A stretch of 64,000 nt of DNA. Source: an uncultured Candidatus Saccharibacteria bacterium (GTDB lineage Bacteria; Patescibacteriota; Minisyncoccia; Phycocordibacterales; SBAW01). The notes below the pieces were generated by a model. That model saw nothing but the letters and a program-made list of their open reading frames with translations. It searched no databases and was not told where the DNA came from. The DNA lies in NCBI GenBank assembly GCA_964355655.1, contig CAYHDT010000001.1, positions 21,588 through 85,587 on the forward strand, written 5' to 3'. This document shows positions 1,695 through 58,824 of the stretch, piece after piece (the first letter of the stretch is position 1; every line of letters starts with the position of its first letter). The position numbers and the translations under genes were made by a program.

Positions 1695-3355
1695 AGGCCG
1701 ATGAAGTTAAACAATGAGTTGCTTTGCTCTGCGCCGAATACAAGTTGGAGCGATGTTTGCGCGGATTGTACGAGCTGGTTGGGGTTGTTGTTCTGCATCG
1801 AGACCCCTATATCGGCGCTCCCGCTGCCCGATCCTGTCTGCCGCAGTGTCAATATCCCCCGGGCGCTATCGGGGCCGGTCGTCTCAGTGCCGCTGAGCGT
1901 CCACACAAACGGAATAAGCCCGGATTTTGCCGTCGCCGTCGAAAAATAAAAGGCTTCCGCTTTGATGGTTATCTCTTTAGCGGCAAGCGATATAGCCGCG
2001 GGCAGAGCCGCCTCGTACAAAATGCCCCGCAGAGCATCGTACTGGTAGAGCAGGATAAAGGGCGCCGTCGCGGGGAGAAATAGTTCGGCATGGCCGACTT
2101 TATTGACACCATAATAAACATCGACGGCAACATCTTCTCCGGGCTGCAACTGATCGCCTGTGCGGGTAAAGATATTGCGTCCAAGGCCCGACACCTCGGG
2201 GACAGGATCGCCGCGATATATCCATTGATAAGACAACGCACTGTGGGCAACACGCGCTGAGCCTGAGTACACCGTGGGAAGCGCCACTACTTTGTAGTTA
2301 GAGCCCGCGCTGTAAAGGGCTTTCCCTTGGTAGAGCAGCGGGACGGTAGTGTCCGCTTCCCAAATAAGGTTTACGCGCGAAGGGTTAAAGGTAAAAGTCC
2401 TGGTAAAGACTCCCTGGCTTGAGTCTATTGTCGCGCGCACGGTCGTTTTTTCGCCCAATGCTCCGGTGACAAAAGTGTAAGAGCGCTCCCCAATGCCTTC
2501 TTTGACCACCTTGCCGTCCTTGCTCCAGGTAATGTTGGCGCTGCCGAGGAAGGAACCAACCCCTTGTATTTCGATCGCGACGTTTTCGCGCGCGCCCGGA
2601 GCCTCGGGCGCCACGATATATTGCACCGGCGCCGGGACGGTTTGCGCATGTACTTGCTTTGCCGGCAGGCAGGCCTGGATTCCGAACATCAGCAACAACG
2701 CCAATGCGGCGCCTCTTGCCGCGGGGCGGATATCATTAAAGCGACCGGCCAGGAGCGGCGCGCGTGAACGCTCTTTAGTTTGGATTTCTTTTTCCAACGC
2801 GACGGCGGGGGCAAAGCGGCGCTGTGCGGAGACTCCGGCAATATGTTTCAGCCCCCCCGGCCCTTTCCCGCGCGCGGTTACGAACGAAAGCGCTTGGCCG
2901 AACGTCCCCGCCGGAGCACTTTCCTCTTTTTGCTTTTCCCGGATGCACTTCCATACCATGTTGGTCCATATCGGGAGAAAGCCGAAGAAAGGCATTATCT
3001 CGCCGAGCATTCTTGGAATGATAACGCGCGGGTAGAACATGCCGTTCATGGCGAGCATCATAATAATGACGGCGCCGATGGTAATGCTGAGCGCCGTATC
3101 AACCGCGGCCCCCAGCGGTATGGCAAAGGCGCTCATGCCGGCGCCTATCAAAGCTCCTCCAATCGCGCATTTTGCGCCGGCAACAAGAGCGGCTATAGTG
3201 CCGGTCGTAGCGTTATAGCAATATGTTGCGCCGAGCGCGGCTCCCGAAAGACCTCCGCCTACCGGTGTTGCAAATTGAAGCGCGATAAAAGCCATGCCGA
3301 TAAAGAACTGGATGAAGTCGAGTATGGCCGCGGGGATAAGGTAGAAGTACCGCAT
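1691..3355 (-). CDS. Polytopic membrane protein with a large extracytoplasmic C-terminal domain (T4SS cluster member).
   Basis: Start reassigned to MRYFYLIPAAILDF (ATG at 3355) with a GGAGG RBS, 1 nt after the VirB4 stop. Three to four N-terminal TM helices are followed by an internal signal-peptide-like segment (ALALLLMFGIQACLPAKQVHAQ) and then about 320 aa of soluble domain. Confidence 0.55.
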   Translation of the reverse strand: MRYFYLIPAAILDFIQFFIGMAFIALQFATPVGGGLSGAALGATYCYNATTGTIAALVAGAKCAIGGALIGAGMSAFAIPLGAAVDTALSITIGAVIIMMLAMNGMFYPRVIIPRMLGEIMPFFGFLPIWTNMVWKCIREKQKEESAPAGTFGQALSFVTARGKGPGGLKHIAGVSAQRRFAPAVALEKEIQTKERSRAPLLAGRFNDIRPAARGAALALLLMFGIQACLPAKQVHAQTVPAPVQYIVAPEAPGARENVAIEIQGVGSFLGSANITWSKDGKVVKEGIGERSYTFVTGALGEKTTVRATIDSSQGVFTRTFTFNPSRVNLIWEADTTVPLLYQGKALYSAGSNYKVVALPTVYSGSARVAHSALSYQWIYRGDPVPEVSGLGRNIFTRTGDQLQPGEDVAVDVYYGVNKVGHAELFLPATAPFILLYQYDALRGILYEAALPAAISLAAKEITIKAEAFYFSTATAKSGLIPFVWTLSGTETTGPDSARGILTLRQTGSGSGSADIGVSMQNNNPNQLVQSAQTSLQLVFGAEQSNSLFNFIGL

Positions 3356-3356
3356 A

Positions 3357-5165
3357 TTATTGGGCCGCCTCCGCCTTTTTTTGGCGCAGGGCAAGGACTT
3401 GGGACGGGTCGGAAGTGATTATTTGGTCTTCGGTGTAGGAGGCTATTACTTTTATGGCAACATGCTTAAGGCCTGCGAAGAAGATTCCCTCCCCCACATC
3501 GGACTCAAGGAGCAAAAACTTCTCTTCGTCCGATAAGTTAAAAGTTTTCTGCAGATTGTCTATGGTAGTCGGCGACTGTTTAAGGAGTATCTGGATACTG
3601 GAGTTGGTAATCATCGGCAATCCGTACGGTGACTTCAAAAAGTCATCTACGTCTTGCGTGATGGTGGCAAGTCCTAAGTAGTATTTGCGGCCGCGCTTGG
3701 CCATCGAGTACAGGAAGCTCGCGGTGTCGTCCGACTTCATCATCCACCACGCCTCATCGATGACGAGTAGGCGTTTTTTAAGATTTTTGCGCACCGCGTT
3801 CCAGATGTAGTGCGTAATAAGGTACATTGCCACCGGCTTCAGGTCGTCTTCCATGTCGCGGACGGAAAAGACGACAAATTTTTTGTTTATATCGACGTTG
3901 GTCGGTTGGTTGATAAAGCCCGACCATGTGCCCTTGGTGTACTTGCTGAGGCGCTGCACCAGGGACTCCGAGCCCTGCAAGCCCGCGAGCACCAGCTCGA
4001 AGTCGGAAAGGAGCGGCGGCTCCACCTCGGCAAAGTTGCTGTCGATGGTAATGTCTTTAAGCGCGTATGTTTCGGTAATGGCGCGGTCAATAATGGCATC
4101 TTCTTCGGGTGTGAGCCCCCCGAGCATAATGCGGAACATTCCTACCAGCGCCACGATATTGGAGCGCAGAATATCGGCCGGCGACTCGTCTTCGCGCGGG
4201 ACAGCCAAGTCAAACGGGTTGATATGATTTTCCGAGTTGAGAGAAATGTTGAAGTATCGCCCGCCGACCGTTTGCGCCAAAAACTCGTACTCGCGCTCCG
4301 GGTCGATGACGATAACCTCGGTATCAAACATCAATGTGCGCAAGATTTCCAGCTTGGTGGCGTATGACTTGCCGGAACCGGACTTGGCAAAGATGACGGA
4401 GTTATAGTTCTCGAGACTGAAGCGGTCAAACAGCACCAGAGAAGCGTTGTGTCGGTTGACGCCGTAGAGTATGCCTTTGTCTGAAGTAAGGTCAAAAGAC
4501 ACGAACGGGAAGATGCTTGAAAGCGGGCTTGAGTTGAGTTTGGAGTTAACCTTCAACTCGTCGTGGCCGAGCGGGAGCACAGACTTAAAGCCCTGCTCCT
4601 GTTGGAAGAGCGCGGGTTTGACGTATACGAGGCGCGACTCCAGCATGGACTTTATTTCGCTCTCGGCTTTGTCCAACTCTTCGACCGAGGCGCCGTAGAT
4701 AGTAATGTAGACGCCGACGTCAAAAAGCTTTTCCTGCGCCTGCTGGAGCTGGTCGCGCAATGACTCCAGGTCTTGGTAGGCGGTGTCGAGTATCGGGTCG
4801 CGCACGAGGCCCTTCTCCTCCCGGGACATTATCTGGCTCTGCACCTCGGCCACCTTTTTTTGGAACTTTTTAAGTATCTCGGCGGAGTCTATCGGGTGGA
4901 TAAAGATAGAAATATCGAGCACGCGGTCGAGGTTGATGATGGGAGAGAACCACGAGTCGGTCAGGACTCTCGGGTAGGACATCACAAAAAACGTGCGCGC
5001 TATCTTGTCGCCGAGGTTTATCTCGCGGGGAGTTATTTTAAGCGCCGACGGGGCGATGACGTCCTGCAGCTCGAGTACCCCCTCTTTATATATTTGTTCG
5101 GGGAGTATAGACGCCATCGGCGCTAAGGTCTCTTTTTTTGGTTTTAGAAAATCTAAGAGTGCCAT
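3357..5165 (-). CDS. virB4: VirB4/TrbE/CagE-family type IV secretion ATPase.
   Basis: Walker A FAKSGSGKSY, Walker B LLVIDEAWWMM, 602 aa, typical VirB4 C-terminal ATPase architecture. Confidence 0.9.
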   Translation of the reverse strand: MALLDFLKPKKETLAPMASILPEQIYKEGVLELQDVIAPSALKITPREINLGDKIARTFFVMSYPRVLTDSWFSPIINLDRVLDISIFIHPIDSAEILKKFQKKVAEVQSQIMSREEKGLVRDPILDTAYQDLESLRDQLQQAQEKLFDVGVYITIYGASVEELDKAESEIKSMLESRLVYVKPALFQQEQGFKSVLPLGHDELKVNSKLNSSPLSSIFPFVSFDLTSDKGILYGVNRHNASLVLFDRFSLENYNSVIFAKSGSGKSYATKLEILRTLMFDTEVIVIDPEREYEFLAQTVGGRYFNISLNSENHINPFDLAVPREDESPADILRSNIVALVGMFRIMLGGLTPEEDAIIDRAITETYALKDITIDSNFAEVEPPLLSDFELVLAGLQGSESLVQRLSKYTKGTWSGFINQPTNVDINKKFVVFSVRDMEDDLKPVAMYLITHYIWNAVRKNLKKRLLVIDEAWWMMKSDDTASFLYSMAKRGRKYYLGLATITQDVDDFLKSPYGLPMITNSSIQILLKQSPTTIDNLQKTFNLSDEEKFLLLESDVGEGIFFAGLKHVAIKVIASYTEDQIITSDPSQVLALRQKKAEAAQ

Positions 5166-6563: not shown

Positions 6564-7196
6564 TTACTCTGCTGGTTCGCGGTACGGGTCTGCGGTGTAA
6601 GGTTTTGGCGCAATTGGCGCAGCCGGAGAAGGGTTTGTTATTTGTGCCGGCGCCGTGCTGACAGTCTTTTGGGTCAGTATCATATCCGCAGGGTGGGGTG
6701 TGATGATTTTGGGGGCAGGAACCATAGGTTTTGGCGGTAAAGGCGCAGGGACAGGCGGCAATTTAGGTTGTGCCGGAGGAACTATCGGAGGTACAGGTGT
6801 GGAAATTTTGACGGACGCAGGGGCGATCGCCGGTCTGGTCACTTGAGCCGGGCTTGGCACAACTTTCTGTTTCTGGTAAGTTTTTTTCATCACCTCGCGT
6901 ATTTTTATAAACAAAAGATCATTTAAATCTCGAGCTATTGCATCCGCCTTGGTTGAATCGATACCCATGGTTTCTGCCAATACTGCTTGGAAGTCAGCGG
7001 TGTCGGTAAAACCAAGCATAACTGCGCTTGTTTCGTCCTCGAGCACCCCCGTTTGATCTAAATGGAGTTGGTATTTTTGAGCTATTTGTCGGATGGTCAT
7101 GAGCATCTCCGAGCTATATAACAGATATTTTATTTCCGGCGGCAAGGAATCATAGCGGGCTTTTGCTTCTTGAGGTGTGTAAGTTTTTTTTGTCAT
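6564..7196 (-). CDS. Hypothetical protein with a Pro-rich C-terminal half.
   Basis: 210 aa. N-terminal globular region, then a PxxP-rich tail (PVPPIVPPAQPKLPPVPAPLPPKPMVPAP). Confidence 0.55.
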   Translation of the reverse strand: MTKKTYTPQEAKARYDSLPPEIKYLLYSSEMLMTIRQIAQKYQLHLDQTGVLEDETSAVMLGFTDTADFQAVLAETMGIDSTKADAIARDLNDLLFIKIREVMKKTYQKQKVVPSPAQVTRPAIAPASVKISTPVPPIVPPAQPKLPPVPAPLPPKPMVPAPKIITPHPADMILTQKTVSTAPAQITNPSPAAPIAPKPYTADPYREPAE

Positions 7197-7202
7197 ACTT
7201 AC

Positions 7203-9395
7203 TTATACTTTTGGACTAATAATCTCTGCTTTATTTGTTTTTTCGATTTTCTTTTCAAGCTCTTTCACATGAGTGAGTCCATCATTTACTGTTTGTCTGG
7301 TTGCAGACAAAGTCGCCATGGTGGACGTGTCTCGGGCAAGTCGTGCGTCCTCAAATTGTTTGGTGACTTCTTTCAGTTTTGTTCCGAGTCCATCCTTTAG
7401 GTCTTTAATATTGGCATCCTTTATTGTAATGCCTGCCGCTAGCGTAGAGGTAAGAGTTGGAATTCCTCCCAGTTTTGTATTGATGTCTCGCAAAAGTTCA
7501 ATTTCTTTTTGCGCTTGGCGTACCATAGCGTGAGGAGAGTGGTTTTCATAATTGGCGTGCGCTTCATCTTTTTGTTGCTCATTCATTTTTTCGAGATCGC
7601 TCATTATCTTGCTCTGGCTTTCGGTAAAGATATGAGATAGGGTTTTTATGTGGTCGGCATCCAAGGTTCCCATTTGACGTTTATCCAGCGCTTGTAAACG
7701 CCCAAGGTCTGTTGCGTCAATACCTTTTTCAGCTTTATCGCCTGCGGCGATATTCCTTTCAATAATAGGCTTTATTTTTGAAGATAACTCACGATTCTCG
7801 ACGTCTCGTAGGTTGTTGCCCATCTCTTTGTTGCGGGTATCAAGGAACTCTTTTCGCACTTTGTAAGACGAAGCAACGGTTCCCAAAGACGTTTCAGTCA
7901 TGGGTTTAAGCACATTTTTGTTGAGCCGGTATCCTACCGTGCCCAGAGCTTTGCCCCATAGAGTTGAGCGATCGTTTGCCCATCTGCTGCCGGCTACACC
8001 CTTGCTGGCCGCATTTGCAAGTCGGCCACCCGTCTGACGGTATGCAGCGCCGGCAGCCCAGCCAGGGCCCCATTTGGCAGCAGATTTGCCGGCATTAAAT
8101 ACTCCACCACTGACAGTAGAGGCGATACTGCTTCCCTCTTTGACCACCCAGTCCGAAACCTTAAGCGCCACGTACATAAGCGCGATGATGAACCCCATGC
8201 GGATAAACACCGCCGCTATCGTACCCATCGAGGCTATTTCAGAGCCTCCGGCTGTGGCATTCCCCGCAGTGTTGGCGATGGCGTTCATAAGGCTGGTGCT
8301 GGCGCCGCCGGTGGTTCCTCCGGAGAGTATATCTCCCGAAAACCGGGTGAGAATAAGGAACATAAAGAGGAATATCGCCGGGTAGGCCGAAAATTCGATT
8401 AGCTTCCTCAACCATTGATGAAAAAAGTGCGCGGTCTGTGGCATCGTGCGTGCCACAAAAGCCAACGGCGAGGCTATAAGCAAAAACCACAGTCCCACGA
8501 TACGGAGCAAAAATTTGATTCCCACCTGTACAAAAATGAAGAAGAGCATCCACAACATGACCGCAACCGACAGATAAATGACGGTAAAGGTCCCCAGCGC
8601 TGCCCATGCTCCGCTGGAGAAGACAGATTGGTTTCCGCCTATTTGGTCGAACATTTGCTTGCTAAGCAACACCTGCGGGCCTACGGCCCCCATGATAGAG
8701 GTGCTTAGGTCTTTGACGCCGTTTATCTGCACTATTTTCCCGTCCGTCCCCGTCCCGGCGGGTATCGCATTATAAAATTGGAGAGCCAGGATGTTGCCGG
8801 TGTCTATCGCCACCCGGGTAAAAAAGAAGCTAAAGTTGACCAGGAGCGCGACAAGGACCACGACCGCAAGCGTTTTTATTGTCCCCGCGGTTTCCGCCTC
8901 TAGCATGACCATTACGGCGATGTAGATAAGGATAAAAATGAACGTCATGTTGGCGATATCGCGCACGGTCTCCCACCCTTTTGACAGGAAGTCCAGCGCG
9001 TAGGCGGTGCTGTTGAGCGACAGTTGTATGACGATGCTGAAAAAGTAGGCACCAATGTAGGCGACTTTGGTGGCCAGCATGGGCCCGACGTAGTACATAA
9101 GCACCGTAAGGCATTGCGTAATGCCGTTGCACTCAATTTGGGTAGAAGGTTCTTTGAAAGAGTTTTTAATAGCCTCTCCGGCTATATAACCAGTCGCCGA
9201 CCCGAGTAGTGGTACTGCATGAGCTTTTGGCGCACCAATAGGTGCCATGCTCGCTAAAAGCATCGCGAGCACAATACCGGGGATTATTTTTTTACTTAAA
9301 CGCATTGCATTGTTGGAGCTCGTCGGCGGTTTGTTGGTTGCGCGAGGCAAGCGCGCTTTGGAGCGTTGTCCGGTCTTGTGTCGCGTTGGTAACAT
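7203..9395 (-). CDS. VirB6/TrbL-like polytopic membrane protein with a long C-terminal coiled-coil/charged domain.
   Basis: At least 6 TM helices over about 400 aa, then a Lys/Glu-rich helical tail. An alternative start at 9305 (MRLSKKIIPGIV) is possible. Confidence 0.6.
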   Translation of the reverse strand: MLPTRHKTGQRSKARLPRATNKPPTSSNNAMRLSKKIIPGIVLAMLLASMAPIGAPKAHAVPLLGSATGYIAGEAIKNSFKEPSTQIECNGITQCLTVLMYYVGPMLATKVAYIGAYFFSIVIQLSLNSTAYALDFLSKGWETVRDIANMTFIFILIYIAVMVMLEAETAGTIKTLAVVVLVALLVNFSFFFTRVAIDTGNILALQFYNAIPAGTGTDGKIVQINGVKDLSTSIMGAVGPQVLLSKQMFDQIGGNQSVFSSGAWAALGTFTVIYLSVAVMLWMLFFIFVQVGIKFLLRIVGLWFLLIASPLAFVARTMPQTAHFFHQWLRKLIEFSAYPAIFLFMFLILTRFSGDILSGGTTGGASTSLMNAIANTAGNATAGGSEIASMGTIAAVFIRMGFIIALMYVALKVSDWVVKEGSSIASTVSGGVFNAGKSAAKWGPGWAAGAAYRQTGGRLANAASKGVAGSRWANDRSTLWGKALGTVGYRLNKNVLKPMTETSLGTVASSYKVRKEFLDTRNKEMGNNLRDVENRELSSKIKPIIERNIAAGDKAEKGIDATDLGRLQALDKRQMGTLDADHIKTLSHIFTESQSKIMSDLEKMNEQQKDEAHANYENHSPHAMVRQAQKEIELLRDINTKLGGIPTLTSTLAAGITIKDANIKDLKDGLGTKLKEVTKQFEDARLARDTSTMATLSATRQTVNDGLTHVKELEKKIEKTNKAEIISPKV

Positions 9396-27009: not shown

Positions 27010-27306
27010 CTATAAAGAGAAGAAAAGCGTGCCGAGGAACACGACGACTATGCCCGCAAAGGCCGCCACGCTTTTGGTAAACAGGCTTACCGCCTCTTTC
27101 TTTTGCCCATCGAGATACATTTGGACCGGAGAGAAGAAGAAGCAGTAGCTCATCATAAGGACCGACAGCACCAGGAGCGAAATCATAGTGAGAGGAATCA
27201 GGAGTGTCTCCGGGCCGTCAAATCCGTCTAGTGAACTCATAAAAAGCACCACTGCGCCGATATAAACAGCCGCCGCCCCGGCATTAATTAAAGGGTTCTT
27301 TGTCAT
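27010..27306 (-). CDS. Small integral membrane protein.
   Basis: 98 aa, three predicted TM helices. Confidence 0.5.
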   Translation of the reverse strand: MTKNPLINAGAAAVYIGAVVLFMSSLDGFDGPETLLIPLTMISLLVLSVLMMSYCFFFSPVQMYLDGQKKEAVSLFTKSVAAFAGIVVVFLGTLFFSL

Positions 27307-27443
27307 ACTCTAGTGTAACCCCGCTGGGGTACAAAGGTGTCCTTGTTTAAATCTATTGACCCTACGCTCTACACCATAATAATGTTCGGGTTTTACTTTT
27401 TATCCCTTGGTAAGAAGCCTTGCGTTCACACGTCCTATAGGAT

Positions 27444-27459
27444 ATAACAGATATGTTAT
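27444..27459. promoter_or_regulatory. Palindrome ATAACAGATATGTTAT upstream of the HigBA-like pair, a candidate autoregulatory operator.
   Basis: Near-perfect inverted repeat about 20 nt upstream of the toxin ATG. Confidence 0.4.
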
Positions 27460-27479
27460 GCTCATAGCACATCACTGTT

Positions 27480-27854
27480 ATGGATTATAAATATTGGGAG
27501 GATAACCAAGGTCGATCTCCTGTGCTGGTGATGGTGCGTGAAATGGAGCAAACCGATGCTAGATCAGCAAAGTCCGTGACGAAGCACCTTCAAAAACTTC
27601 AAAAATATCCCTACGAACAGCTAACCAGACACAAGCTTGTGAAAAAACTGAAAGGAAAAAATCCTTTTAAAATTCATGAGTTGCGTCTAACTCTACCAAA
27701 TAAGTTCGCGCGGATATTTTTTATAGTAGCCCGAGACACAAAAGCATGGCTTCTGCACCTTATTGTCAAAAAAAGCGATAGCACTCCCCCGAAGGACATC
27801 CAAGTGGCGGAGGATCGAGCGGGAGATCTTGATCGTAGAATTAGATATTTGTAG
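27480..27854 (+). CDS. RelE/ParE-superfamily (HigB-like) toxin.
   Basis: Small basic protein with KIHELRL and ARIFFIV motifs. It is encoded upstream of an XRE-HTH antitoxin, the HigBA order. AT-rich islet. Confidence 0.6.
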   Translation: MDYKYWEDNQGRSPVLVMVREMEQTDARSAKSVTKHLQKLQKYPYEQLTRHKLVKKLKGKNPFKIHELRLTLPNKFARIFFIVARDTKAWLLHLIVKKSDSTPPKDIQVAEDRAGDLDRRIRYL

Positions 27855-27905
27855 CTGAGCTCAAATGCTGAAAAGATAGAATCTTAAGATAATAAAGATA
27901 AAAAC

Positions 27906-28340
27906 ATGAAAGCTAGTAAGATAGGTAAGAATAGAATTTTAAAGGAAAAACTGGATGACCTAAAAATAGATGTAGGGCTCCAGATTCTTGAGCTGCGTCT
28001 TATAAAAAATAAGACGCAAGATGCTTTGGCAAAAATGATTGGTACACAACAACCTAGCATTGCACGAGCTGAGAGAGGAGCCACTATTCCCAGTCTAGAT
28101 TTCTTGAACAAAATTGCTGTTGCACTAGGGACGGAACTTATAGCTCCAAAATTCTCTCTCGTCGAAGAAAACGAAAGACGTTTTCGGTCGGAAATGGCTG
28201 CTGTAAAAATCCAAACTAGGGGAGATGCTCATGCAAGCATTATGAAATTCGCACTTCCTAACGCAATACATCCGACTGTGTCTTTAGATTATGCCTCGAC
28301 TAGTCCGGGAGCAAATATATCGCACTCACTTGGTAACTAA
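27906..28340 (+). CDS. XRE-family HTH antitoxin (HigA-like).
   Basis: HTH LRLIKNKTQDALAKMIGTQQPSIARAERG. Confidence 0.7.
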   Translation: MKASKIGKNRILKEKLDDLKIDVGLQILELRLIKNKTQDALAKMIGTQQPSIARAERGATIPSLDFLNKIAVALGTELIAPKFSLVEENERRFRSEMAAVKIQTRGDAHASIMKFALPNAIHPTVSLDYASTSPGANISHSLGN

Positions 28341-28351
28341 CGAAAATTATT

Positions 28352-28825
28352 ATGAAAAAAAATAACATTCGCTACATGGGTGGTATAATCTCGAACTCAT
28401 CTACTGTAGACCAGATGTCTCAAGCTCTTTCGGTCTTTAACGTTATTGATCAAATTGACGTTGACCTAAAAGCTAAAGAGTTAAATAAAGTAAATCTAGA
28501 TTCTGTAGAAAAAATACCTGTCCCGATTAACTTTCAAGTCATTTCTATGTGGAAAAGAAATAACTTGTCTGATGAAAATAAATCTGTTAATTCTAAGCTC
28601 CATATAGAATTTGTGGACCCTATTGGAGAAAAACTTAATGAAACAACTTTTGATCTTCCTATAGCAGAAGGAAAAAAAAGAACGCGCTATATACTCAATG
28701 TTAATGGGATGTTTGTAACCAGAACTGGCGAATATCTTGTTCAGTTTAGAGAAATGTTCTCTAAGGATGAGAAGTCGGAAGTACTGGGTACCTTGATTCT
28801 TGACGTGGTGGTTAACAAGAGTTAA
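28352..28825 (+). CDS. Hypothetical protein in the AT-rich islet.
   Basis: 157 aa, low-GC codon usage like the adjacent TA genes. No motif recognised. Confidence 0.45.
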   Translation: MKKNNIRYMGGIISNSSTVDQMSQALSVFNVIDQIDVDLKAKELNKVNLDSVEKIPVPINFQVISMWKRNNLSDENKSVNSKLHIEFVDPIGEKLNETTFDLPIAEGKKRTRYILNVNGMFVTRTGEYLVQFREMFSKDEKSEVLGTLILDVVVNKS

Positions 28826-28863
28826 GCCAAAGATTTGCCATAGCCTTCCGCTTCCCAGAGTGT

Positions 28864-29508
28864 TTAATTGCTGTCTAAGGTGCGCCAGAGGTAGAAGCAG
28901 GCTACCGTTCGGTGGCCTGACCAGCACCTTGCCAGCTTCTCCATTTTCTTTGGAGTGGGTTTGTGCCGGAGATGAAACACTTTTTGGAATGCTTTTTGAA
29001 TACCAAGGTCGCCTGTGGGCAGCACGTCGGGTCGCGCGAGCGTAAACATGAGGAACATCTGCGCTGTCCACTCCCCTATGCCCTTAACCGCGACGACATG
29101 CTCGATAATCTCGGTATCGGACATCGCGTGGAACAGAAGCGGGTTGATAGTGCCGTCTTTAAACTTTGCCGCAAGGTCTTTCAAGTAGCTCGCCTTTTGT
29201 CCCGACAGTCCGGCGGCGCGCAACTTCTCGGTTTTTATTTCGAGGACATTTTCCGGAGTAGGAAAATTCCTCGCCCTACGAAGCCTTGGCGAAGTAGGGT
29301 TGAATAGGTCCACAAATCTTTTTAAAATGGTCGCCGCTGCCTTGCCCGACAACTGCTGGTAGACAATAGCTTCGGCCAGCGATTGAAACGCGTCCATCGA
29401 GTGCTCGCGCCGGAAGGTAATAGGCCCGTGTTTTTTAACAAATGCCCCGAGGTGTTTGTCTTTGGATAAGTATTTTATCGAAACAGCATGAGGGTTGCCT
29501 TTAGTCAT
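28864..29508 (-). CDS. DNA-3-methyladenine glycosylase II-like (HhH-GPD family, AlkA).
   Basis: HhH motif VKGIGEWTAQMF followed by a catalytic Asp (PTGDLGIQK). Start reassigned to MTKGNPH (29508). The 5' extension in the ORF track is Cys-rich and not protein-like. Confidence 0.8.
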   Translation of the reverse strand: MTKGNPHAVSIKYLSKDKHLGAFVKKHGPITFRREHSMDAFQSLAEAIVYQQLSGKAAATILKRFVDLFNPTSPRLRRARNFPTPENVLEIKTEKLRAAGLSGQKASYLKDLAAKFKDGTINPLLFHAMSDTEIIEHVVAVKGIGEWTAQMFLMFTLARPDVLPTGDLGIQKAFQKVFHLRHKPTPKKMEKLARCWSGHRTVACFYLWRTLDSN

Positions 29509-49904: not shown

Positions 49905-51377
49905 CTAATCAACGAAGTATTTCCTATGTATGTCCTTTATTTCAGCTTCCTCCGCAACCTCCTTAGCCTCTTTGGCCTCCTCCCCTATCTTACGCAGCTC
50001 TTTGTCGGTCAAATTGAGCAGCTCCAGCGCTTTTTGCTCCAAATAGTCGGCTGTATTTTTTGCAGGGTCTTCCAATACCTCCTCTAGCAGCGCGTGGAGC
50101 GTCCAGCCTATGCGAGGGCCCGGCCGCTCCCCCAACTCAATGATTTTTCGGCCATCTATTTTGAGCATGCCGACCGATATCGGGTCGCGCATTGCCTGCT
50201 CTATCATGGCCTGGTACTTGCGCAGGCGAAAAGGTTGCTCTTTGGGGCGCCCGGTGCCTATCCGGTCGCATATGCGGAGGTTTATAAGGTCCCAAATATG
50301 TTCCCGCCCCACGTTAGCTACTATCCGGCGCACTGCGGACAAGGTTACCTTCTCCGGGTCGCTAAAAAACATATGCCAGCGAACCAGCGAGGCAGCCCGG
50401 TCTATCGTTTCACGTGGAAACTTAAGGTTTTCGAGTATCTTTTTGGTCATCCGCGCTCCAACCACGTCGTGTCCGTGGAAAGTCCAATCGCGTTTTTCAT
50501 CCGACCAGCGGCGGCTCTTTGGCTTTCCTACATCGTGAAACAAGGCGGACAAGCGGATGATGAAACTCCAGTTTTTATCGGCAGCGTGCTGGGTTGAGCG
50601 CAGGTTGTGCTCAAAAACATCAAAGCTATGGGCCTGATTTTGCTCAACCCCTATCCCCTCCTCGATTTCGGGGGCTATATAGCGTAAAATCCCTAATTTA
50701 TGGCTTAAAATAAGGGCTTTCATGGGTTCTGCAGAGTTTAATATCCGGATAAATTCATCCCGGATACGCTCTTTAGAAATCTTCTCCAACTGAGTGGCCG
50801 ACTCCCCTATGGCAGTCTGCGTTTTTGGCTCTAGCTGGAAGTCGAGCTCGGCCGAAAGTCGTACCGCGCGCATAATTCGCAAAGCATCCTCGTCAAAACG
50901 CTCCCCCGGCTCCCCCACGGCTCTTATCCAGCGACTACCCATGTCCTTTATGCCATCGTAGGGATCCAAAAGCTGTCCTTTAGATGGACTATAGGCTAAG
51001 GCATTGATTGTAAAGTCTCGGCGCTTCAAGTCGTCCTCTATCTTTTGACTAAAAACAACGCTGTCCGGGCGCCGGGCGTCACTGTACTTGCCCTCAAGCC
51101 TATAAGGCGTTACTTCTACAACCTTGAGACGCTCATCGGTAACGGTGTCATTGACTACCCCGACAGTCCCGAACTCGTTGGTGTAGTAGGTATGCTCAAA
51201 AATACCTTGAATTCGCTCGGGCGTGGCGTTAGTGGTTACATCCCAGTCTTTGGGCGTGTGGCCTAGCAAAAGGTCCCGTATGCACCCCCCTACTATCCAG
51301 GCTTCGAATCCTGCATTTTCCAGGCCTTCTGTTACCCGCGCTACCTCCGGAGGTATTTGGCTGGGACTTATTTGCAT
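49905..51377 (-). CDS. cca: CCA-adding tRNA nucleotidyltransferase with an HD domain.
   Basis: GGCIRDLLLG..DWDV nucleotidyltransferase motif plus an HD domain (HDVGK). Confidence 0.9.
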   Translation of the reverse strand: MQISPSQIPPEVARVTEGLENAGFEAWIVGGCIRDLLLGHTPKDWDVTTNATPERIQGIFEHTYYTNEFGTVGVVNDTVTDERLKVVEVTPYRLEGKYSDARRPDSVVFSQKIEDDLKRRDFTINALAYSPSKGQLLDPYDGIKDMGSRWIRAVGEPGERFDEDALRIMRAVRLSAELDFQLEPKTQTAIGESATQLEKISKERIRDEFIRILNSAEPMKALILSHKLGILRYIAPEIEEGIGVEQNQAHSFDVFEHNLRSTQHAADKNWSFIIRLSALFHDVGKPKSRRWSDEKRDWTFHGHDVVGARMTKKILENLKFPRETIDRAASLVRWHMFFSDPEKVTLSAVRRIVANVGREHIWDLINLRICDRIGTGRPKEQPFRLRKYQAMIEQAMRDPISVGMLKIDGRKIIELGERPGPRIGWTLHALLEEVLEDPAKNTADYLEQKALELLNLTDKELRKIGEEAKEAKEVAEEAEIKDIHRKYFVD

Positions 51378-51414
51378 TGGATAATTCTAACAGATAAAGC
51401 TATTATTAAGTTCT

Positions 51415-51487
51415 GCGCCCGTAGCTCAATGGATAGAGTACTTGGCTTCGAACCAAGGGGTTGGGAGTTCGAATCTCTCCGGGCGCA
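51415..51487 (+). tRNA. tRNA-Arg (anticodon TCG).
   Basis: Cloverleaf: acceptor GCGCCCG/CGGGCGC, anticodon loop CUUCGAA, T-loop GGGAGUUCGAAUCUCUC. Confidence 0.85.
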
Positions 51488-51541
51488 CAAAAGTGCTCAT
51501 TGTGGATAAATGAACTACCGTTCTGTCCTATATAGTATCAT

Positions 51542-52216
51542 GTGCTTATGAGGAAAGACAAAGAGTTGGCCATCGAATTAAGAAGAGCCGGTAAAAGCTA
51601 TCGGGAAATTAAGAAAGAGATAGGAGTCTCACTCAGTACGCTTTCTCTATGGTTTAAAGATCTCGAATGGTCTAAGGATGTTGGTAGAAAGCTTATTTTT
51701 CAACACATTTCAGATAGTACAACTAGGATATTTGAACTGAATAAAGTCAGAGGTAAGAGACTCGACACCATTTATGAATTGGGGCGCAAGGTTGCGGCTA
51801 AAGAGTTTGATAAACTAAAAACTGATCCCCTCTTTGTAGCCGGTGTGGTGGCCTATTGGGGAGAAGGAGACAAGACTACAAAACATCTATGTCGATTGGC
51901 AAACAGCGACCCGGCGATGATAAGGCTATTTTGGTTGTTTTTGACTAAGAAATGTAGAATTCCAGAGAACAAAATAGCCTGTTGGCTGATCCTTTATCCC
52001 GATTTGGACGAACAGATCGTAAAAAAACAATGGAGCCTAGAAAGCGGAATCCCCGAGAGTAACTTTAGAAAAGCGGTTTTTATAAAAGGTAGACATCCAA
52101 CCAAAAGAAACAAGTATGGTGTCTGTAGTATAGTCGTCCCCAGTCGATTTTTTAAAGAAAAAATGCTACTATGGCTTCGTTTGATAGCAGAGGAGTTCAA
52201 TGCGGATATGGTCTAA
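51542..52216 (+). CDS. HTH-containing hypothetical protein in an AT-rich insert between tRNA genes. Possibly homing-endonuclease-like (weak).
   Basis: N-terminal HTH KSYREIKKEIGVSLSTLSLWFKDL. FVAGVVAYWGEGDK weakly resembles a LAGLIDADG-type motif. The 3' end overlaps the tRNA-Gly start by 15 nt. Confidence 0.45.
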   Translation: MLMRKDKELAIELRRAGKSYREIKKEIGVSLSTLSLWFKDLEWSKDVGRKLIFQHISDSTTRIFELNKVRGKRLDTIYELGRKVAAKEFDKLKTDPLFVAGVVAYWGEGDKTTKHLCRLANSDPAMIRLFWLFLTKKCRIPENKIACWLILYPDLDEQIVKKQWSLESGIPESNFRKAVFIKGRHPTKRNKYGVCSIVVPSRFFKEKMLLWLRLIAEEFNADMV

Positions 52217-52272
52217 TGGTATGACAACTGGTTGCCAATCAGTTAGCGGGAGTTCGATTCTCCCTATCCGCA
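52202..52272 (+). tRNA. tRNA-Gly (anticodon GCC).
   Basis: Acceptor GCGGAUA/UAUCCGC, anticodon loop UUGCCAA, T-arm GGGAGUUCGAUUCUCCC. Confidence 0.8.
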
Positions 52273-52460
52273 CTAAGAAACAGATATTAAAAGACATCCA
52301 GAGTGTGGATAATCAATCCCCTATAAATAAAGGAATATTTAGCATTTCTGTGGATAAGTATGGGGATATGTGCATTAAAGGACACAAAAATACTGTCCTT
52401 CACCTGCCCGACAGGCAATGTGAGTGCCTTTTTAGTGCAAAAACACCAATTTATGTTTCA

Positions 52461-52521
52461 TATGTAACGTTTTACGTGAACCATGTGAACGCGAAATGAG
52501 TGAACGGGAACCATGTGAACG
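52461..52521 (+). repeat. Five tandem copies of (T)GTGAAC(G) immediately upstream of yraN.
   Basis: tatGTAACG, acGTGAACc, atGTGAACG, gaGTGAACG, atGTGAACG within 61 nt. The run ends 7 nt before the ATG at 52528. Confidence 0.6.
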
Positions 52522-52527
52522 AGAATC

Positions 52528-52908
52528 ATGCCTAGTCCAAAGCGCAAAATAGGAGATATCGGGGAGGAGGTTGTGTGTAAATACCTAGAAAGAAAGGGAT
52601 TTCGGGTATTGGAGCGTAATTACCTTAGAAAATGGGGCGAAATAGATATTGTTGCCGAAAAGGGCCCATTGCTTAGTTTTATCGAGGTAAAGAGCGTTAC
52701 ACGTGAAAATGGTTCACGTGCAACATATAGGCCGGAAGAGAACGTGCACCCGGCAAAGCTTAAAAGGCTGCACCGGGCTATACAGACCTACTTATTGGAC
52801 CGAAGGGTACCGGAAGACAGGCCGTGGCAGGTGGATGTGGCTTGTGTTTACTTGGATTTTTCGACCAGAAAGGCTAGAGTAGAGGTATTGGAGAATGTAA
52901 TTCTCTAA
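52528..52908 (+). CDS. yraN: YraN (UPF0102) family endonuclease.
   Basis: IGDIGEEVVCKYLERKGFRVLERNYL..GEIDIVAEKGPLLSFIEVKS signature. Confidence 0.8.
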   Translation: MPSPKRKIGDIGEEVVCKYLERKGFRVLERNYLRKWGEIDIVAEKGPLLSFIEVKSVTRENGSRATYRPEENVHPAKLKRLHRAIQTYLLDRRVPEDRPWQVDVACVYLDFSTRKARVEVLENVIL

Positions 52909-52957
52909 AAGACAAAATAAAAGACACCATTCGTCGCTAAAGCTATGAAGGGCACAG

Positions 52958-53028
52958 CGGGGCGTAGTATACCGGTAGTACAACTGCTTTGGGAGCAGTT
53001 AGACCGAGTTCAATTCTCGGCGCCCCGA
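52958..53028 (+). tRNA. tRNA-Pro (anticodon TGG).
   Basis: Acceptor CGGGGCG/CGCCCCG, anticodon loop UUUGGGA, T-arm CCGAGUUCAAUUCUCGG. It overlaps the 5' extension of the tracked methyltransferase ORF, which was therefore trimmed. Confidence 0.8.
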
Positions 53029-53036
53029 CAAAAGTT

Positions 53037-53900
53037 ATGGAAAAGATAACGCTTATAACCAAGCCTTCCGCCGGATACGAGCTGTTGGACTCAGGGTTTG
53101 AAGAGAAGCTTGAGCGTTTTGGCGAGGTTATTTTGGCGCGCCCGGACCCGCAGGCTTTATGGGAGAAGGACAGGGAAGAGAAGTGGCAAAATGCCGCCGG
53201 CCGGTTTGAGAGAGAGGGGAAGGATGGGAAATGGTCAGGAAAGTCTTTGCCAAAACAATGGGAGACAGAATTTGGTGGATTAAAGTTTTTGATTAAGCCG
53301 ACCAGTTTTAAACACACAGGCCTCTTCCCTGAGCAATTGTCCAACTGGCAGTGGGGGAGCGAGTTGATAAAAAATGCCGGAAGGGAAATCTCGATTTTAA
53401 ATATTTTTGGTTACACCGGCGGGGCGACGCTTGCTGCCGCAGCCGCCGGAGCAAAAGTTACGCATGTCGATGCAAGCAAGACAGCCGTCGCCTGGGCGCG
53501 GGAAAATGCAAAGCTGTCGGGGTTGGAGGGCGCACCCATCCGCTGGATAACCGAAGATGCAATCACTTTTTTGAAGCGCGAGGTAAGCCGCGGCAACAAG
53601 TACGACGCCGTCGTGATGGACCCGCCGGCATTCGGGCATGGGCCCGATGGGGAAGTGTGGAAGTTTGAGGAGCATTTTTTGCAGCTTCTTGAGTTGGTGC
53701 AAAAACTGCTCTCCAATAAGCCGCTGTTTGTACTGATTAACGGCTATGCTGCGGGCTACTCGCCGCTTGCCTTTGCCTACAATCTGGAGAGTTTTGTAAA
53801 AAAGTTCGGCGGTACTATTGAGTATGGGGATCTGGCGATAGCAGAAAAGGATAGCGAACGAGTTTTGCCCGCCGGTATCTTCGCCAGGTGGAAAGCATAG
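53037..53900 (+). CDS. Class I SAM-dependent rRNA methyltransferase (RlmI/RlmK-like).
   Basis: DPPAFG motif and SAM-binding GYTGGATLAAAAAGA. Start at MEKITLITK (53037), after tRNA-Pro. Confidence 0.75.
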   Translation: MEKITLITKPSAGYELLDSGFEEKLERFGEVILARPDPQALWEKDREEKWQNAAGRFEREGKDGKWSGKSLPKQWETEFGGLKFLIKPTSFKHTGLFPEQLSNWQWGSELIKNAGREISILNIFGYTGGATLAAAAAGAKVTHVDASKTAVAWARENAKLSGLEGAPIRWITEDAITFLKREVSRGNKYDAVVMDPPAFGHGPDGEVWKFEEHFLQLLELVQKLLSNKPLFVLINGYAAGYSPLAFAYNLESFVKKFGGTIEYGDLAIAEKDSERVLPAGIFARWKA

Positions 53901-58693: not shown

Positions 58694-58764
58694 GTGCGGG
58701 ATGGGAGAATCGAACTCCCAACTACAGTTTGGAAAACTGTCGTTTTGCCACTAAACTAATCCCG
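58694..58764 (-). tRNA. tRNA-Gly (anticodon TCC).
   Basis: The reverse complement gives GCGGGAU...UUUCCAA...GGGAGUUCGAUUCUCCCAUCCCGCA. Confidence 0.8.
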
Positions 58765-58824
58765 CTTGCCCTTTCGAAACTTTAGCGAAGTAGGGCGTAC
58801 CCCGTTATACTAAACCATATCAAC

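Follow-up and report, generated by a model that had tools for sequence, protein, structure and literature searches.

A sporadic HTH gene with a modelled LAGLIDADG-type domain lies directly 5' of tRNA-Gly(GCC) in Patescibacteria

Organization of the tRNA locus

The window, by which we mean the whole 64-kb stretch of DNA analyzed, holds a group of three tRNA genes next to cca. The genome it belongs to is present in groundwater samples from Hainich (ERZ1292616-18). The tRNAs were called with ARAGORN and with Infernal/Rfam, and both methods agreed on the Arg(TCG), Gly(GCC) and Pro(TGG) genes of the original prediction (60-71 bits by Infernal/Rfam). The gene between the first two tRNAs is referred to here as X. 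The features of the locus are as follows.

49905-51377, minus strand: cca, CCA-adding tRNA nucleotidyltransferase (Pfam PolyA_pol, PolyA_pol_RNAbd and HD; NCBIfam CCA tRNA nucleotidyltransferase)
51381-52278, plus strand: variable block of tRNA-Arg allele, X and tRNA-Gly allele (blastn of the window against L091-L094)
51415-51488, plus strand: tRNA-Arg(TCG), upstream neighbor of the X cassette (ARAGORN, Infernal/Rfam)
51501-51509, plus strand: TGTGGATAA, a perfect DnaA-box 9-mer (TTATCCACA on the minus strand), repeated at 52304-52312 and 52349-52357
51512-51520, plus strand: GAACTACCG, conserved upstream of X and resembling the reverse complement of the tRNA T-arm (GGGAGTTCG)
51536-51541, plus strand: -10-like hexamer TATCAT, 6 nt upstream of the X start codon
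51548-52216, plus strand: X, 222-aa protein with HTH and modelled LAGLIDADG-fold domain, start ATG at 51548
51554-51655: HTH of X, aa 3-36
51665-51817: long helix of X, aa 40-90
51827-52198: modelled LAGLIDADG-fold domain of X, aa 94-217
aa 218-222 of X: disordered tail, encoded by tRNA sequence
52202-52273, plus strand: tRNA-Gly(GCC), the partner of X (ARAGORN, Infernal/Rfam)
52274-52527, plus strand: AT-rich spacer, resident, homologous to the spacer of X-less relatives, with two DnaA-box 9-mers
52528-52908, plus strand: yraN (UPF0102, PD-(D/E)XK-like; PF02021, E = 3.5e-21, 75.8 bits against a cut-off of 23.6)
52958-53029, plus strand: tRNA-Pro(TGG), resident (ARAGORN, Infernal/Rfam)

The tRNA-Arg gene had been described as directly abutting cca; the two are close, but 37 nt separate them and they are divergently oriented. 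Neither introns nor RNA families other than tRNA were detected by Infernal/Rfam in 51200-53200, and a group I intron or other RNA at the locus was rejected because the Rfam matches were tRNAs only. A terminator-like hairpin (52413-52429) lies inside the spacer before yraN.

The longest reading of the X ORF begins at a GTG and encodes 224 aa (51542-52216), and the start was set at the ATG at 51548 (222 aa) from an alignment of the family and from gene calls in public assemblies. The ORF ends with a TAA at 52214-52216, within the D-loop of tRNA-Gly, so that nucleotides 52202-52216 of the tRNA double as the last four codons and stop of X. Because the stop codon sits in the D-loop, the 15-nt overlap noticed earlier is real.

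Both inserted genes had been called AT-rich, which is correct for X, with a GC content of 0.402 compared to 0.528 for the window (bottom 2% of 669-nt windows), and only mildly so for yraN (0.459). Third-position GC is 0.40 in X but reaches 0.59-0.60 in cca and the methyltransferase gene, and X falls below the GC content of its own locus in 80 of 85 loci (by 5.6 points; p = 5e-15). All copies of X are intact and dN is 0.14; a dN/dS ratio was not computable because dS was saturated. X is kept under purifying selection.

The gene in the second tRNA gap was recognized as yraN from the outset, and the YraN/UPF0102 match is clear. It occupies the same place between tRNA-Gly(GCC) and tRNA-Pro(TGG) in 41 of 45 relatives anchored on cca, and its identity declines in step with that of cca. 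The gene is a resident of housekeeping type outside the element, and its interpretation as a selfish insert was not borne out.

Distribution of X and its linkage to tRNA genes

Relatives were compared using cca, a resident flanking gene, as the marker of the host. X was present in 6 of 56 cca-anchored relatives (~11%) and the other 50 sites were empty, with no remnant of X in any of them by tblastn (E <= 1e-2). Such an absence of decayed copies is unusual for homing endonuclease genes. At the empty sites, the spacer from tRNA-Arg to tRNA-Gly measures 1-80 nt and includes an ordinary -10 box. Paralogues of X were comparably scattered, occupying 6 of 68 Arg-TCG, 5 of 24 Gly-TCC and 0 of 45 Pro-TGG sites. 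The HTH gene therefore behaves as a presence/absence insert at a tRNA locus, as had been proposed. It is neither present in all relatives nor ordinary in composition, nor does it lack a nuclease-like fold (see below), the three findings named beforehand as speaking against the original prediction.

The nearest relatives, L091-L094 (cca 82-89% identical), do not carry X. Homology to these genomes ends at about 51380 (cca side 51378-51380) and restarts at about 52279; about 250 nt with other tRNA-Gly and tRNA-Arg alleles stand in place of 51381-52278. No conservation was observed among the sequences upstream of empty sites. The tRNA-Gly sequences did not differ systematically between loci with and without X, and L063, which has X, shares an identical tRNA-Gly with L128 and L135, which lack it. 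This tRNA comparison led us to reject immunity conferred by a variant tRNA sequence.

Pairwise identities of X and cca were poorly correlated (Spearman coefficient 0.37), with strong outliers in both directions and non-independent pairs. For example, the window and L010 share 73% identity in cca and 80% in X, while L026 and L039 share 89% and 60%, respectively. Judged from these identities, the history of X is incongruent with that of the host marker. Among genome pairs with cca identity of at least 75%, again non-independent, tRNA-Gly identity followed X (rho 0.64) more than cca (0.41); this signal is confined to close genomes, as tRNA identity is saturated over all pairs and its comparison with X there uninformative (rho 0.15). 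The tRNA-Arg allele at the locus is not conserved between close relatives, that of the window being 65.8% identical to the tRNA-Arg of L095 even though the cca genes are 90% identical.

We then examined the position of X relative to tRNA genes. A tRNA-Gly(GCC) gene lies directly 3' of X on the same strand in all 84 evaluable loci (78/78 species genomes and 6/6 cca-anchored), at a distance of -21 to +68 nt, and this linkage is complete across deep divergence (41-50% protein identity). Of 27 paralogues of X, 26 lie immediately 5' of a tRNA, whereas the baseline for other ORFs of the same loci was 7.6%. These paralogues cluster by cognate tRNA, namely Arg(TCG), Gly(TCC), Ile(TAT), Val(GAC) and Lys(CTT); tRNA-Gln is the neighbor of fused relatives from Actinomycetota, and a phage tRNA cluster contains another relative. 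Each clade of the family is tied to a different tRNA, and X is fixed to the 5' end of a single one. The family comprises 5552 clusters at 50% identity from Patescibacteria, Actinomycetota and phages, all members of which are annotated as 'hypothetical', and our literature searches found no description of it.

Domain structure of X and upstream sequence elements

In the structure model, the C-terminal domain of X is arranged as alpha-beta-beta-alpha-beta-beta-alpha with an N-terminal interface helix and has a LAGLIDADG-type fold. The nuclease-like fold sought in the 224-aa HTH protein was thus recovered at the level of the model. The weak LAGLIDADG-like motif first seen by eye corresponds to aa 94-109 (PLFVAGVVAYWGEGDK, nt 51827-51874, plus strand), which proved to be the most conserved stretch of the family. 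In 120 sequences its consensus is hhxGhhhYWGEG[DE]K, with Y103, W104 and G107 invariant and G105, E106 and K109 at least 90% conserved. The first LAGLIDADG helix (aa 94-106) terminates at E106, so that the motif's last acidic residue closes that helix C-terminally, as the superfamily requires. E106 is a putative metal-binding acid and the presumed equivalent of D20 of I-CreI. 'EG.K' is kept in every paralogous clade, save in three of four tandem copies.

Sequence-based searches returned the HTH only. Pfam detected a weak N-terminal HTH alone in X (HTH_23, E = 1.3e-3), and no Pfam LAGLIDADG family appeared for the 120 members at E <= 1 among the matches listed (complete for member 1; the 25 most-matched of 93 families). 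NCBIfam and PHROGs searches with X yielded HTH matches and no LAGLIDADG model, and phmmer and profile searches of PDB sequences gave HTH matches only. Alignment of the family profile to I-CreI by hhalign, for which the I-CreI sequence was checked against PDB 1n3e, had a probability of 0.1, and Foldseek comparison of the full X model with the PDB produced weak OmpA-like and YjgF-like matches only.

As X carries a single LAGLIDADG domain, we assumed that it forms a homodimer. Four loci have tandem X'-X gene pairs, and two-domain fusions are found in the relatives P0234, P0244, P0253 and P0268; tandem pairs and two-domain fusions are typical of the evolution of LAGLIDADG enzymes. Other identities were considered and rejected. 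The HTH_23 and HTH_SB matches suggested an IS630/Tc1-mariner transposase, but NF033545 covers only residues 10-41 (E = 0.051, 13 bits against a cut-off of 100), and the HTH is followed by the LAGLIDADG-fold domain of the model, with no DDE/DDD domain. An intron- or intein-encoded homing endonuclease does not apply either, X being a stand-alone ORF between tRNAs at a locus with no Rfam intron and three intact tRNAs.

The perfect DnaA-box 9-mer TGTGGATAA occurs three times only in the 64 kb. Its first two copies are 803 nt apart and bracket X and tRNA-Gly, and the motif is enriched around X at other loci. The downstream boxes are resident, as they were also found in X-less loci. A replication origin at this cluster was unsupported, since no large-scale switch in GC skew was seen, as was a strict target-site duplication, because L095, the closest relative with X, has only TGGATAA upstream. 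A 29-nt repeat of the T-arm and 3' end (76% identical) also brackets the X cassette; integration at this repeat through a hybrid tRNA was rejected, since tRNA-Arg and tRNA-Gly, read from sequence, have acceptor stems that are not interchangeable. For the T-arm-like element upstream of X, the pattern GAACN(1-2)CCG was present in 18 of 77 upstream regions, compared to 0.008 expected per 60 nt. GAACNCCG and TTATCCACA are candidate motifs for binding by the HTH of X.

TAnnnT hexamers ending 6-8 nt before the ATG were counted 55 times in 80 upstream regions (79 loci and the window), compared to 3-7 at most other distances of 4-11 nt and 14 at 12 nt. No Shine-Dalgarno motif was visible upstream of X. 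When the window was scanned for consensus promoters, the proposed -10/-35 elements of X were not called, and no full sigma-70 promoter was identified there. From the positional bias we predict that TATCAT marks a promoter of X, whose mRNA would have no leader or a very short one. Co-transcription is not universal, since one clade has a canonical promoter between X and the tRNA.

Proposed explanation, alternatives and related systems

Previously, AT-rich nuclease or HTH genes between tRNAs were taken as signs of homing or selfish elements. This does not hold for the resident yraN, but X conforms to it in its modelled fold, sporadic occurrence, foreign composition and incongruent history. We consider it reasonably probable that X is a free-standing selfish gene of homing-endonuclease type, belonging to a family specialized on the 5' side of tRNA genes and moving with the tRNA. 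The protein, an N-terminal HTH joined to a single LAGLIDADG-fold domain and presumably acting as a homodimer, would cut alleles that lack X, at the tRNA gene or close to it, and repair from an X-bearing copy would bring in X with the linked tRNA-Gly, much as happens with T4 SegB and its tRNA region. Insertion at this site may be harmless to the host, because the tRNA tolerates any 5' extension and RNase P trims it. If the -10 box of X drives a leaderless transcript that continues through X into the tRNA, RNase P would take the role that splicing has for endonucleases encoded in introns. In loci such as the present one, with an ORF that extends into the tRNA, the cut would also take off the stop codon of X. 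A more tentative extension, possible but far from established in our judgment, is that the family forms a large superfamily of HTH-LAGLIDADG homing endonucleases with 5' tRNA leaders as its niche, one tRNA gene per clade, leaderless mRNAs fused to the tRNA precursor, release by RNase P, and the tRNA allele carried along. Elements spreading in this way would cause the tRNA genes of minimal genomes to be replaced and shuffled.

Other explanations account for part of these observations. That unrelated small genes came to lie within an ordinary tRNA cluster by chance is an adequate description of cca, yraN and the methyltransferase gene, all conserved syntenic residents; for X it is refuted by the positions of orthologues and paralogues relative to the 7.6% baseline, and we give it almost no credence. 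An ancestral host gene of tRNA-Gly biology, for instance an RNA-binding, maturase-like helper inherited vertically with many losses, would agree with the unbroken association of X with a single tRNA across deep divergence, and some LAGLIDADG proteins, the intron-encoded maturases, do act on RNA. However, 50 of 56 relatives have an ordinary promoter and no trace of X, so a vertical history would require very many precise deletions; neither the low, uniform GC content nor the incongruence with cca fits, and the paralogues for other tRNAs are just as sporadic. We regard such an origin as very improbable.

Mobility of X and its tRNA as a cassette, by recombination at the T-arm repeats or TGTGGATAA or by phage transfer, with X as a passenger or a binding or nicking helper, is suggested by the two flanking repeats and by the replacement of tRNA-Arg, X and tRNA-Gly as one block in the closest relatives. 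The turnover of tRNA alleles at the locus, the inversion of the module in many genomes and the family member in a phage tRNA cluster point the same way. The 9-nt repeat pair, however, is not kept in L095 and its downstream boxes belong to X-less loci as well, while the match of clades to tRNAs and the conserved catalytic-type motif suggest that specificity comes from the protein itself; we judge this explanation improbable. X could also be a domesticated LAGLIDADG/HTH DNA-binding protein that no longer cuts and regulates the tRNA behind it or promoters bearing DnaA boxes, which we consider unlikely. The model for such a protein is WhiA, a transcription factor with two degenerate LAGLIDADG domains and a C-terminal HTH, whose catalytic acids are lost and whose gene is universal and vertically inherited in its phyla. 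X, in contrast, has one domain, an N-terminal HTH, the conserved acid E106 and ~11% occupancy, and differs from a WhiA-type factor on each of these counts. Furthermore, the same tRNA stands on a plain promoter in the remaining genomes, low GC content and incongruent phylogeny point to a mobile gene, and a tiny genome has no obvious need of several paralogous single-tRNA regulators.

The selfish, homing-type gene that we favor has its nearest counterpart in SegB of phage T4, a GIY-YIG homing endonuclease encoded by a free-standing gene within the cluster of T4 tRNA genes, whose recognition site includes the conserved T-psi-C motif (PMC2330249). Both are endonuclease-type genes among tRNA genes and absent from related genomes; SegB is inherited with adjacent tRNAs, as X may be, and the T-arm-like element conserved upstream of X recalls the T-psi-C motif of the SegB site. 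They differ in that SegB is a GIY-YIG protein of a phage, whereas X has the modelled LAGLIDADG fold, resides on Patescibacteria chromosomes (with relatives in Actinomycetota), has a predicted activity, is fixed at the 5' edge of one tRNA with an ORF often ending inside it, and belongs to a family of many clades each tied to another tRNA.

LAGLIDADG enzymes of rRNA introns occur in CPR bacteria (PMC11270868). With I-CreI, I-DmoI, I-CeuI and PI-PfuI/TliVMA, the X model shares the alpha-beta-beta-alpha-beta-beta-alpha domain and an interface helix ending G-E/D-G, and the X family, like the classical enzymes, includes single-domain (dimeric) and tandem or fused two-domain forms. Unlike them, X lies outside any intron or intein, lacks a Pfam LAGLIDADG match, and has an added N-terminal HTH and 50-residue helix as well as an extra helix between strands 3 and 4. 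Free-standing LAGLIDADG ORFs are also present in fungal and algal organelle genomes, often intergenic near tRNA genes and variable among strains. X resembles these in its position outside introns and near tRNAs and in its variable presence, but they are organellar and detectable by Pfam models, whereas X is bacterial and has no Pfam LAGLIDADG match; to our knowledge, no organellar ORF of this kind has been described as tied to the 5' end of one given tRNA. The yeast Ty3 and Dictyostelium TRE5 retrotransposons integrate just upstream of tRNA genes and likewise exploit this region as a place where a selfish element can safely insert, although they do so by retrotransposition guided by Pol III factors and with unrelated proteins.

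Introns, inteins and intergenic regions of phages are the known locations of homing endonuclease genes. If the explanation is correct, X would represent a bacterial chromosomal family invisible to current annotation, with the 5' side of tRNA genes as a new safe harbor, and a concrete, testable case of tRNA processing neutralizing a selfish insertion. It would account for the fast change of tRNA alleles and cluster order between closely related Patescibacteria. It would also provide dozens of natural LAGLIDADG scaffolds of differing specificity, each presumably for a conserved tRNA-gene sequence, which could interest meganuclease engineers.

The analysis also corrects gene calls at the locus. 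A 99-aa ORF called in public assemblies (52200-52499) overlies tRNA-Gly, has no Pfam or PHROG match and is probably spurious, whereas the overlap of the X ORF with the tRNA reflects biology and not faulty annotation.

Layout of the cca-tRNA locus

The original prediction described an island of three tRNA genes interrupted by two AT-rich inserts, one of them a helix-turn-helix (HTH) gene (here X) whose ORF reaches 15 nt into tRNA-Gly, and the other yraN. ARAGORN and Infernal both recovered the three tRNAs (Infernal scores 60-71 bits), and Infernal found no intron or further RNA family in 51200-53200. The features are as follows.

49905-51377, minus strand, cca, 37 nt from tRNA-Arg and divergent from it
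51415-51488, plus strand, tRNA-Arg(TCG)
51501-51509, 52304-52312 and 52349-52357, DnaA-box 9-mer TTATCCACA
51536-51541, plus strand, -10-like TATCAT of X (TAnnnT scan)
51548-52216, plus strand, X, 222 aa from ATG 51548 (ORF 51542-52216; start from family alignment and public gene calls)
52202-52273, plus strand, tRNA-Gly(GCC)
52528-52908, yraN (YraN/UPF0102; PF02021, 75.8 bits), between tRNA-Gly and tRNA-Pro
52958-53029, plus strand, tRNA-Pro(TGG)
58694-58765, minus strand, tRNA-Gly(TCC), the fourth tRNA of the window

The 15-nt overlap is real, as the TAA stop codon of X (52214-52216) lies inside the D-loop of tRNA-Gly. AT-richness was strong for X: its GC of 0.402 falls in the lowest 2% of same-size windows (whole window 0.528), and its GC3 is 0.40, compared with 0.59-0.60 in cca and the methyltransferase. 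It was only mild for yraN (0.459). Over 85 loci the GC of X was near-constant at about 0.40, below its surroundings in 80. The second proposed insert proved to be wrongly identified: yraN lies between tRNA-Gly(GCC) and tRNA-Pro(TGG) in 41/45 relatives and its identity falls in step with that of cca, so it is a resident gene.

Several smaller features were noted nearby. Public assemblies (L001-L003) annotate as a gene a 99-aa ORF (52200-52499) whose start lies within tRNA-Gly; the call is probably spurious, given the location of the ORF in the resident spacer and the absence of Pfam and PHROG matches. Just 5' of the yraN start, 52479-52521 holds three copies of (A/G)(T/G)GTGAACG ('catgtgaacg', 'gagtgaacg', 'catgtgaacg'), which may be a regulatory repeat. 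In one relative (L010/L004, 4992-6289) yraN stops after 72 codons and tRNA-Pro follows about 1 kb later; this stretch contained no good ORF and no Rfam match, and may be a further insertion or a decayed gene.

Predicted fold and family of X

Sequence libraries gave X a weak N-terminal HTH match alone, of homeodomain or transposase type. AlphaFold modelled the protein confidently, with a pLDDT of 92 over its full length (92.9 for residues 90-222; pTM 0.87), as follows.

aa 3-36, three-helix HTH
aa 40-90, 50-residue helix
aa 94-217, alpha-beta-beta-alpha-beta-(alpha)-beta-alpha domain

The motif PLFVAGVVAYWGEGDK lies on the first helix of the aa 94-217 domain, which ends at E106. Across the family Y103, W104 and G107 do not vary, and G105, E106 and K109 are each kept by at least 90% of members. 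LAGLIDADG enzymes carry a metal-binding acid at the end of the domain's first helix, the position matching E106. Judged by the model, X belongs structurally with LAGLIDADG proteins, and we place it as a new, divergent branch outside the curated families because every test against LAGLIDADG sequence models failed. The C-terminal tail is disordered in the model; in many members it reads A-D/G-M/I-V, the translated tRNA 5' end.

Homologues at E<=0.01 numbered 564, all of them Patescibacteria 'hypothetical proteins' of about 220-230 aa with 45-85% identity. When 1.84 billion cluster representatives were searched with the family profile, 5552 matched at E<=1e-3 and 3300 at E<=1e-10. The family was unannotated in all databases searched.

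Position and inheritance of X

Docking was assessed in 80 X loci from different species genomes, gathered with the family profile. A same-strand tRNA-Gly(GCC) followed X in 78 of them, at a gap of -21 to +68 nt (17 loci overlap by 15 nt and 4 by 10 nt), and the two exceptions were contigs ending less than 100 nt past the stop codon. By comparison, among the remaining ORFs of 150 aa or more in those loci, only 7.6% have a same-strand tRNA equally close downstream. The upstream neighbour was variable (tRNA-Arg or tRNA-Phe in either orientation, tRNA-Pro, or none), and the pair formed by X and tRNA-Gly was frequently inverted with respect to cca and yraN.

Scanning every fetched locus with the profile revealed more distant paralogues with the same habit. 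Among 27 complete, non-tandem copies, 26 lay directly 5' of a same-strand tRNA (gap -21 to +50 nt): tRNA-Arg(TCG) in 11, tRNA-Gly(TCC) in 9, tRNA-Ile(TAT) in 3, tRNA-Val(GAC) in 2 and tRNA-Lys(CTT) in 1. In a neighbour-joining tree they grouped by cognate tRNA rather than by genome, and all clades retained the '...Y-x-[GA]-E-G-x-K' motif. Four loci (L029, L056, L069 and L085, about 3225-3970 in each) carry a tandem family copy directly before X with no tRNA between; these form a clade sister to X, have lost the motif E in 3/4, and may be heterodimer partners or decaying duplicates. Several relatives have a paralogue in front of tRNA-Gly(TCC), where the window has none.

Fused relatives of 396-576 aa were found in high-GC Actinomycetota. 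P0234 (396 aa) joins an HTH to two LAGLIDADG-like domains, and P0244, P0253 and P0268 (504-576 aa) contain the complete unit in duplicate. P0253 (WP_106238207.1, annotated 'hypothetical'; L173 3001-4631) ends 39 nt before a same-strand tRNA-Gln(TTG) in the actinomycete Allonocardiopsis opalescens, and 8 nt separate the end of P0268 from a convergent tRNA-Gln(TTG). The fused relatives adjacent to tRNA-Gln(TTG) map to L173 3001-4631 and L172 1115-2791. Both the family and its association with tRNAs thus extend past Patescibacteria. A phage contig (IMG/VR UViG_3300025316_000027; L170, about 4001-4648) carries a 29%-identical member with the motif IYWGEGDK within a 10-tRNA cluster, on the opposite strand between tRNA-Gln(CTG) and tRNA-Cys(GCA).

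Presence was assessed in a sample blind to X, consisting of 80 loci fetched via cca, of which 56 had tRNA-Gly(GCC) and at least 700 nt upstream. X was present in 6 and absent from 50, in which no remnants were detectable. Many X-less loci have a tRNA-Arg to tRNA-Gly spacing of 1-80 nt and an ordinary -10 box that precedes the tRNA by 7-20 nt; no systematic tRNA sequence difference was found between occupied and empty loci. Paralogue occupancy was equally sporadic (Arg(TCG) 6/68, Gly(TCC) 5/24, Pro(TGG) 0/45). The relative L095, with cca 90% identical to that of the window, carries X at 85% identity and shares the tRNA-Gly sequence of the window exactly. L091-L094 (cca 82-89%) are without X; homology with the window ends at about 51380 and restarts at about 52279, and tRNA-Arg, X and tRNA-Gly are replaced by about 250 nt with other tRNA-Arg and tRNA-Gly alleles, the latter inverted.

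Identities of X and cca correlated poorly, with a Spearman coefficient of 0.37 over 1176 pairs and outliers both ways (window-L010, cca 73% and X 80%; window-L005, 77% and 66%; L026-L039, 89% and 60%). Despite its sporadic presence the gene is maintained: all copies are intact (217-236 aa, none seen decayed) and the window-L010 comparison gave a dN of 0.14 with dS saturated. When the comparison was limited to genome pairs whose cca genes share at least 75% identity, tRNA-Gly identity tracked X (rho 0.64) more than cca (0.41), which is indicative only as the pairs are non-independent, and tRNA-Arg identity followed neither. X and its tRNA thus seem to move as a unit, and tRNA alleles seem to turn over at the locus.

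The tRNA-Arg(TCG) genes of the window and L095 are 65.8% identical although their cca genes are 90% identical, and around cca (L010-L169) the order and orientation of tRNA-Arg, tRNA-Gly and tRNA-Pro change often. The tRNA genes of this locus seem to be replaced and shuffled.

Expression and identity of X

Among 80 upstream regions, a TAnnnT hexamer ended 6-8 nt before the ATG 55 times; most other distances gave 3-7, and 12 nt gave 14. No SD sequence was visible before X, and other genes here also lack one. The gap to the tRNA is 7 nt or less in 45/78 loci, and the tRNA there is therefore transcribed through X or from a promoter inside its 3' end. Co-transcription is not universal, as a canonical TTGAAA-17-TATAAT promoter intervenes in a Yanofskybacteria-type clade. 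The 5' side of a tRNA would be a harmless insertion site, since RNase P would remove everything before the mature 5' end. X would be transcribed from its own promoter as a leaderless mRNA and, given read-through, the RNase P cut at 52202 would remove its last four codons and stop codon. We put forward this leaderless-mRNA and RNase P model tentatively, as one that may well prove incorrect.

Taken together, the findings on X describe a protein-coding element that is site-specific, spreads horizontally and has the motif and fold typical of LAGLIDADG enzymes. We are highly confident that it is a sporadic, tRNA-docked mobile gene of this fold, and the original reading of the HTH gene as a selfish or homing-type insert was right, given its presence in 6/56 loci, its fold and its low GC. 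X is most simply read as a free-standing homing endonuclease gene, and we somewhat favour the prediction that the enzyme is active. Three other identities were rejected: a WhiA-like protein, whose architecture and distribution differ; an intron- or intein-borne gene, with no intron detected by Infernal in 51200-53200; and a transposase, as the C-terminal domain has the LAGLIDADG fold.

By analogy, the genes that X would most resemble in the way it works are the free-standing homing endonuclease genes found in T-even phages and the free-standing LAGLIDADG ORFs of organelles. In function, the nearest precedent is T4 SegB, which is located in a phage tRNA cluster. Its recognition site includes the T-psi-C motif, and it drives its own inheritance along with that of the tRNA genes around it (PMC2330249). 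Group I introns occur in Patescibacteria tRNA genes (PMC13011429), and the passages of that paper reached by term searches contain nothing on genes docked upstream of tRNAs. Full-text literature searches found no description of such genes. One study reportedly deals with LAGLIDADG enzymes in CPR rRNA insertions. What is new is that a gene family of the homing-endonuclease type occupies a fixed niche at the 5' edge of particular tRNA genes.

The three perfect TTATCCACA boxes are all that occur in the 64 kb; they flank the X and tRNA-Gly cassette, two of them 803 nt apart. Other X-containing loci (L010-L089) hold 73 perfect boxes against 4 expected; 29 of these lie no more than 200 nt upstream of X, and one clade has its boxes at fixed positions -88, -75 and -10. 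Boxes downstream of tRNA-Gly are present in X-less loci too.

Two other low-GC stretches were observed. One (6564-8000) spans a 210-aa ORF that matched nothing in Pfam and the final part of a 730-aa ORF whose VKOR match is weak. The other (27100-28900), where GC drops to 0.355, is the island of lowest GC in the window; it also holds a DUF6941-like ORF and looks like a small toxin-antitoxin island, with the following genes.

27480-27854, Gp49-like (HigB-type) toxin gene
27906-28340, HTH_3 antitoxin-like gene
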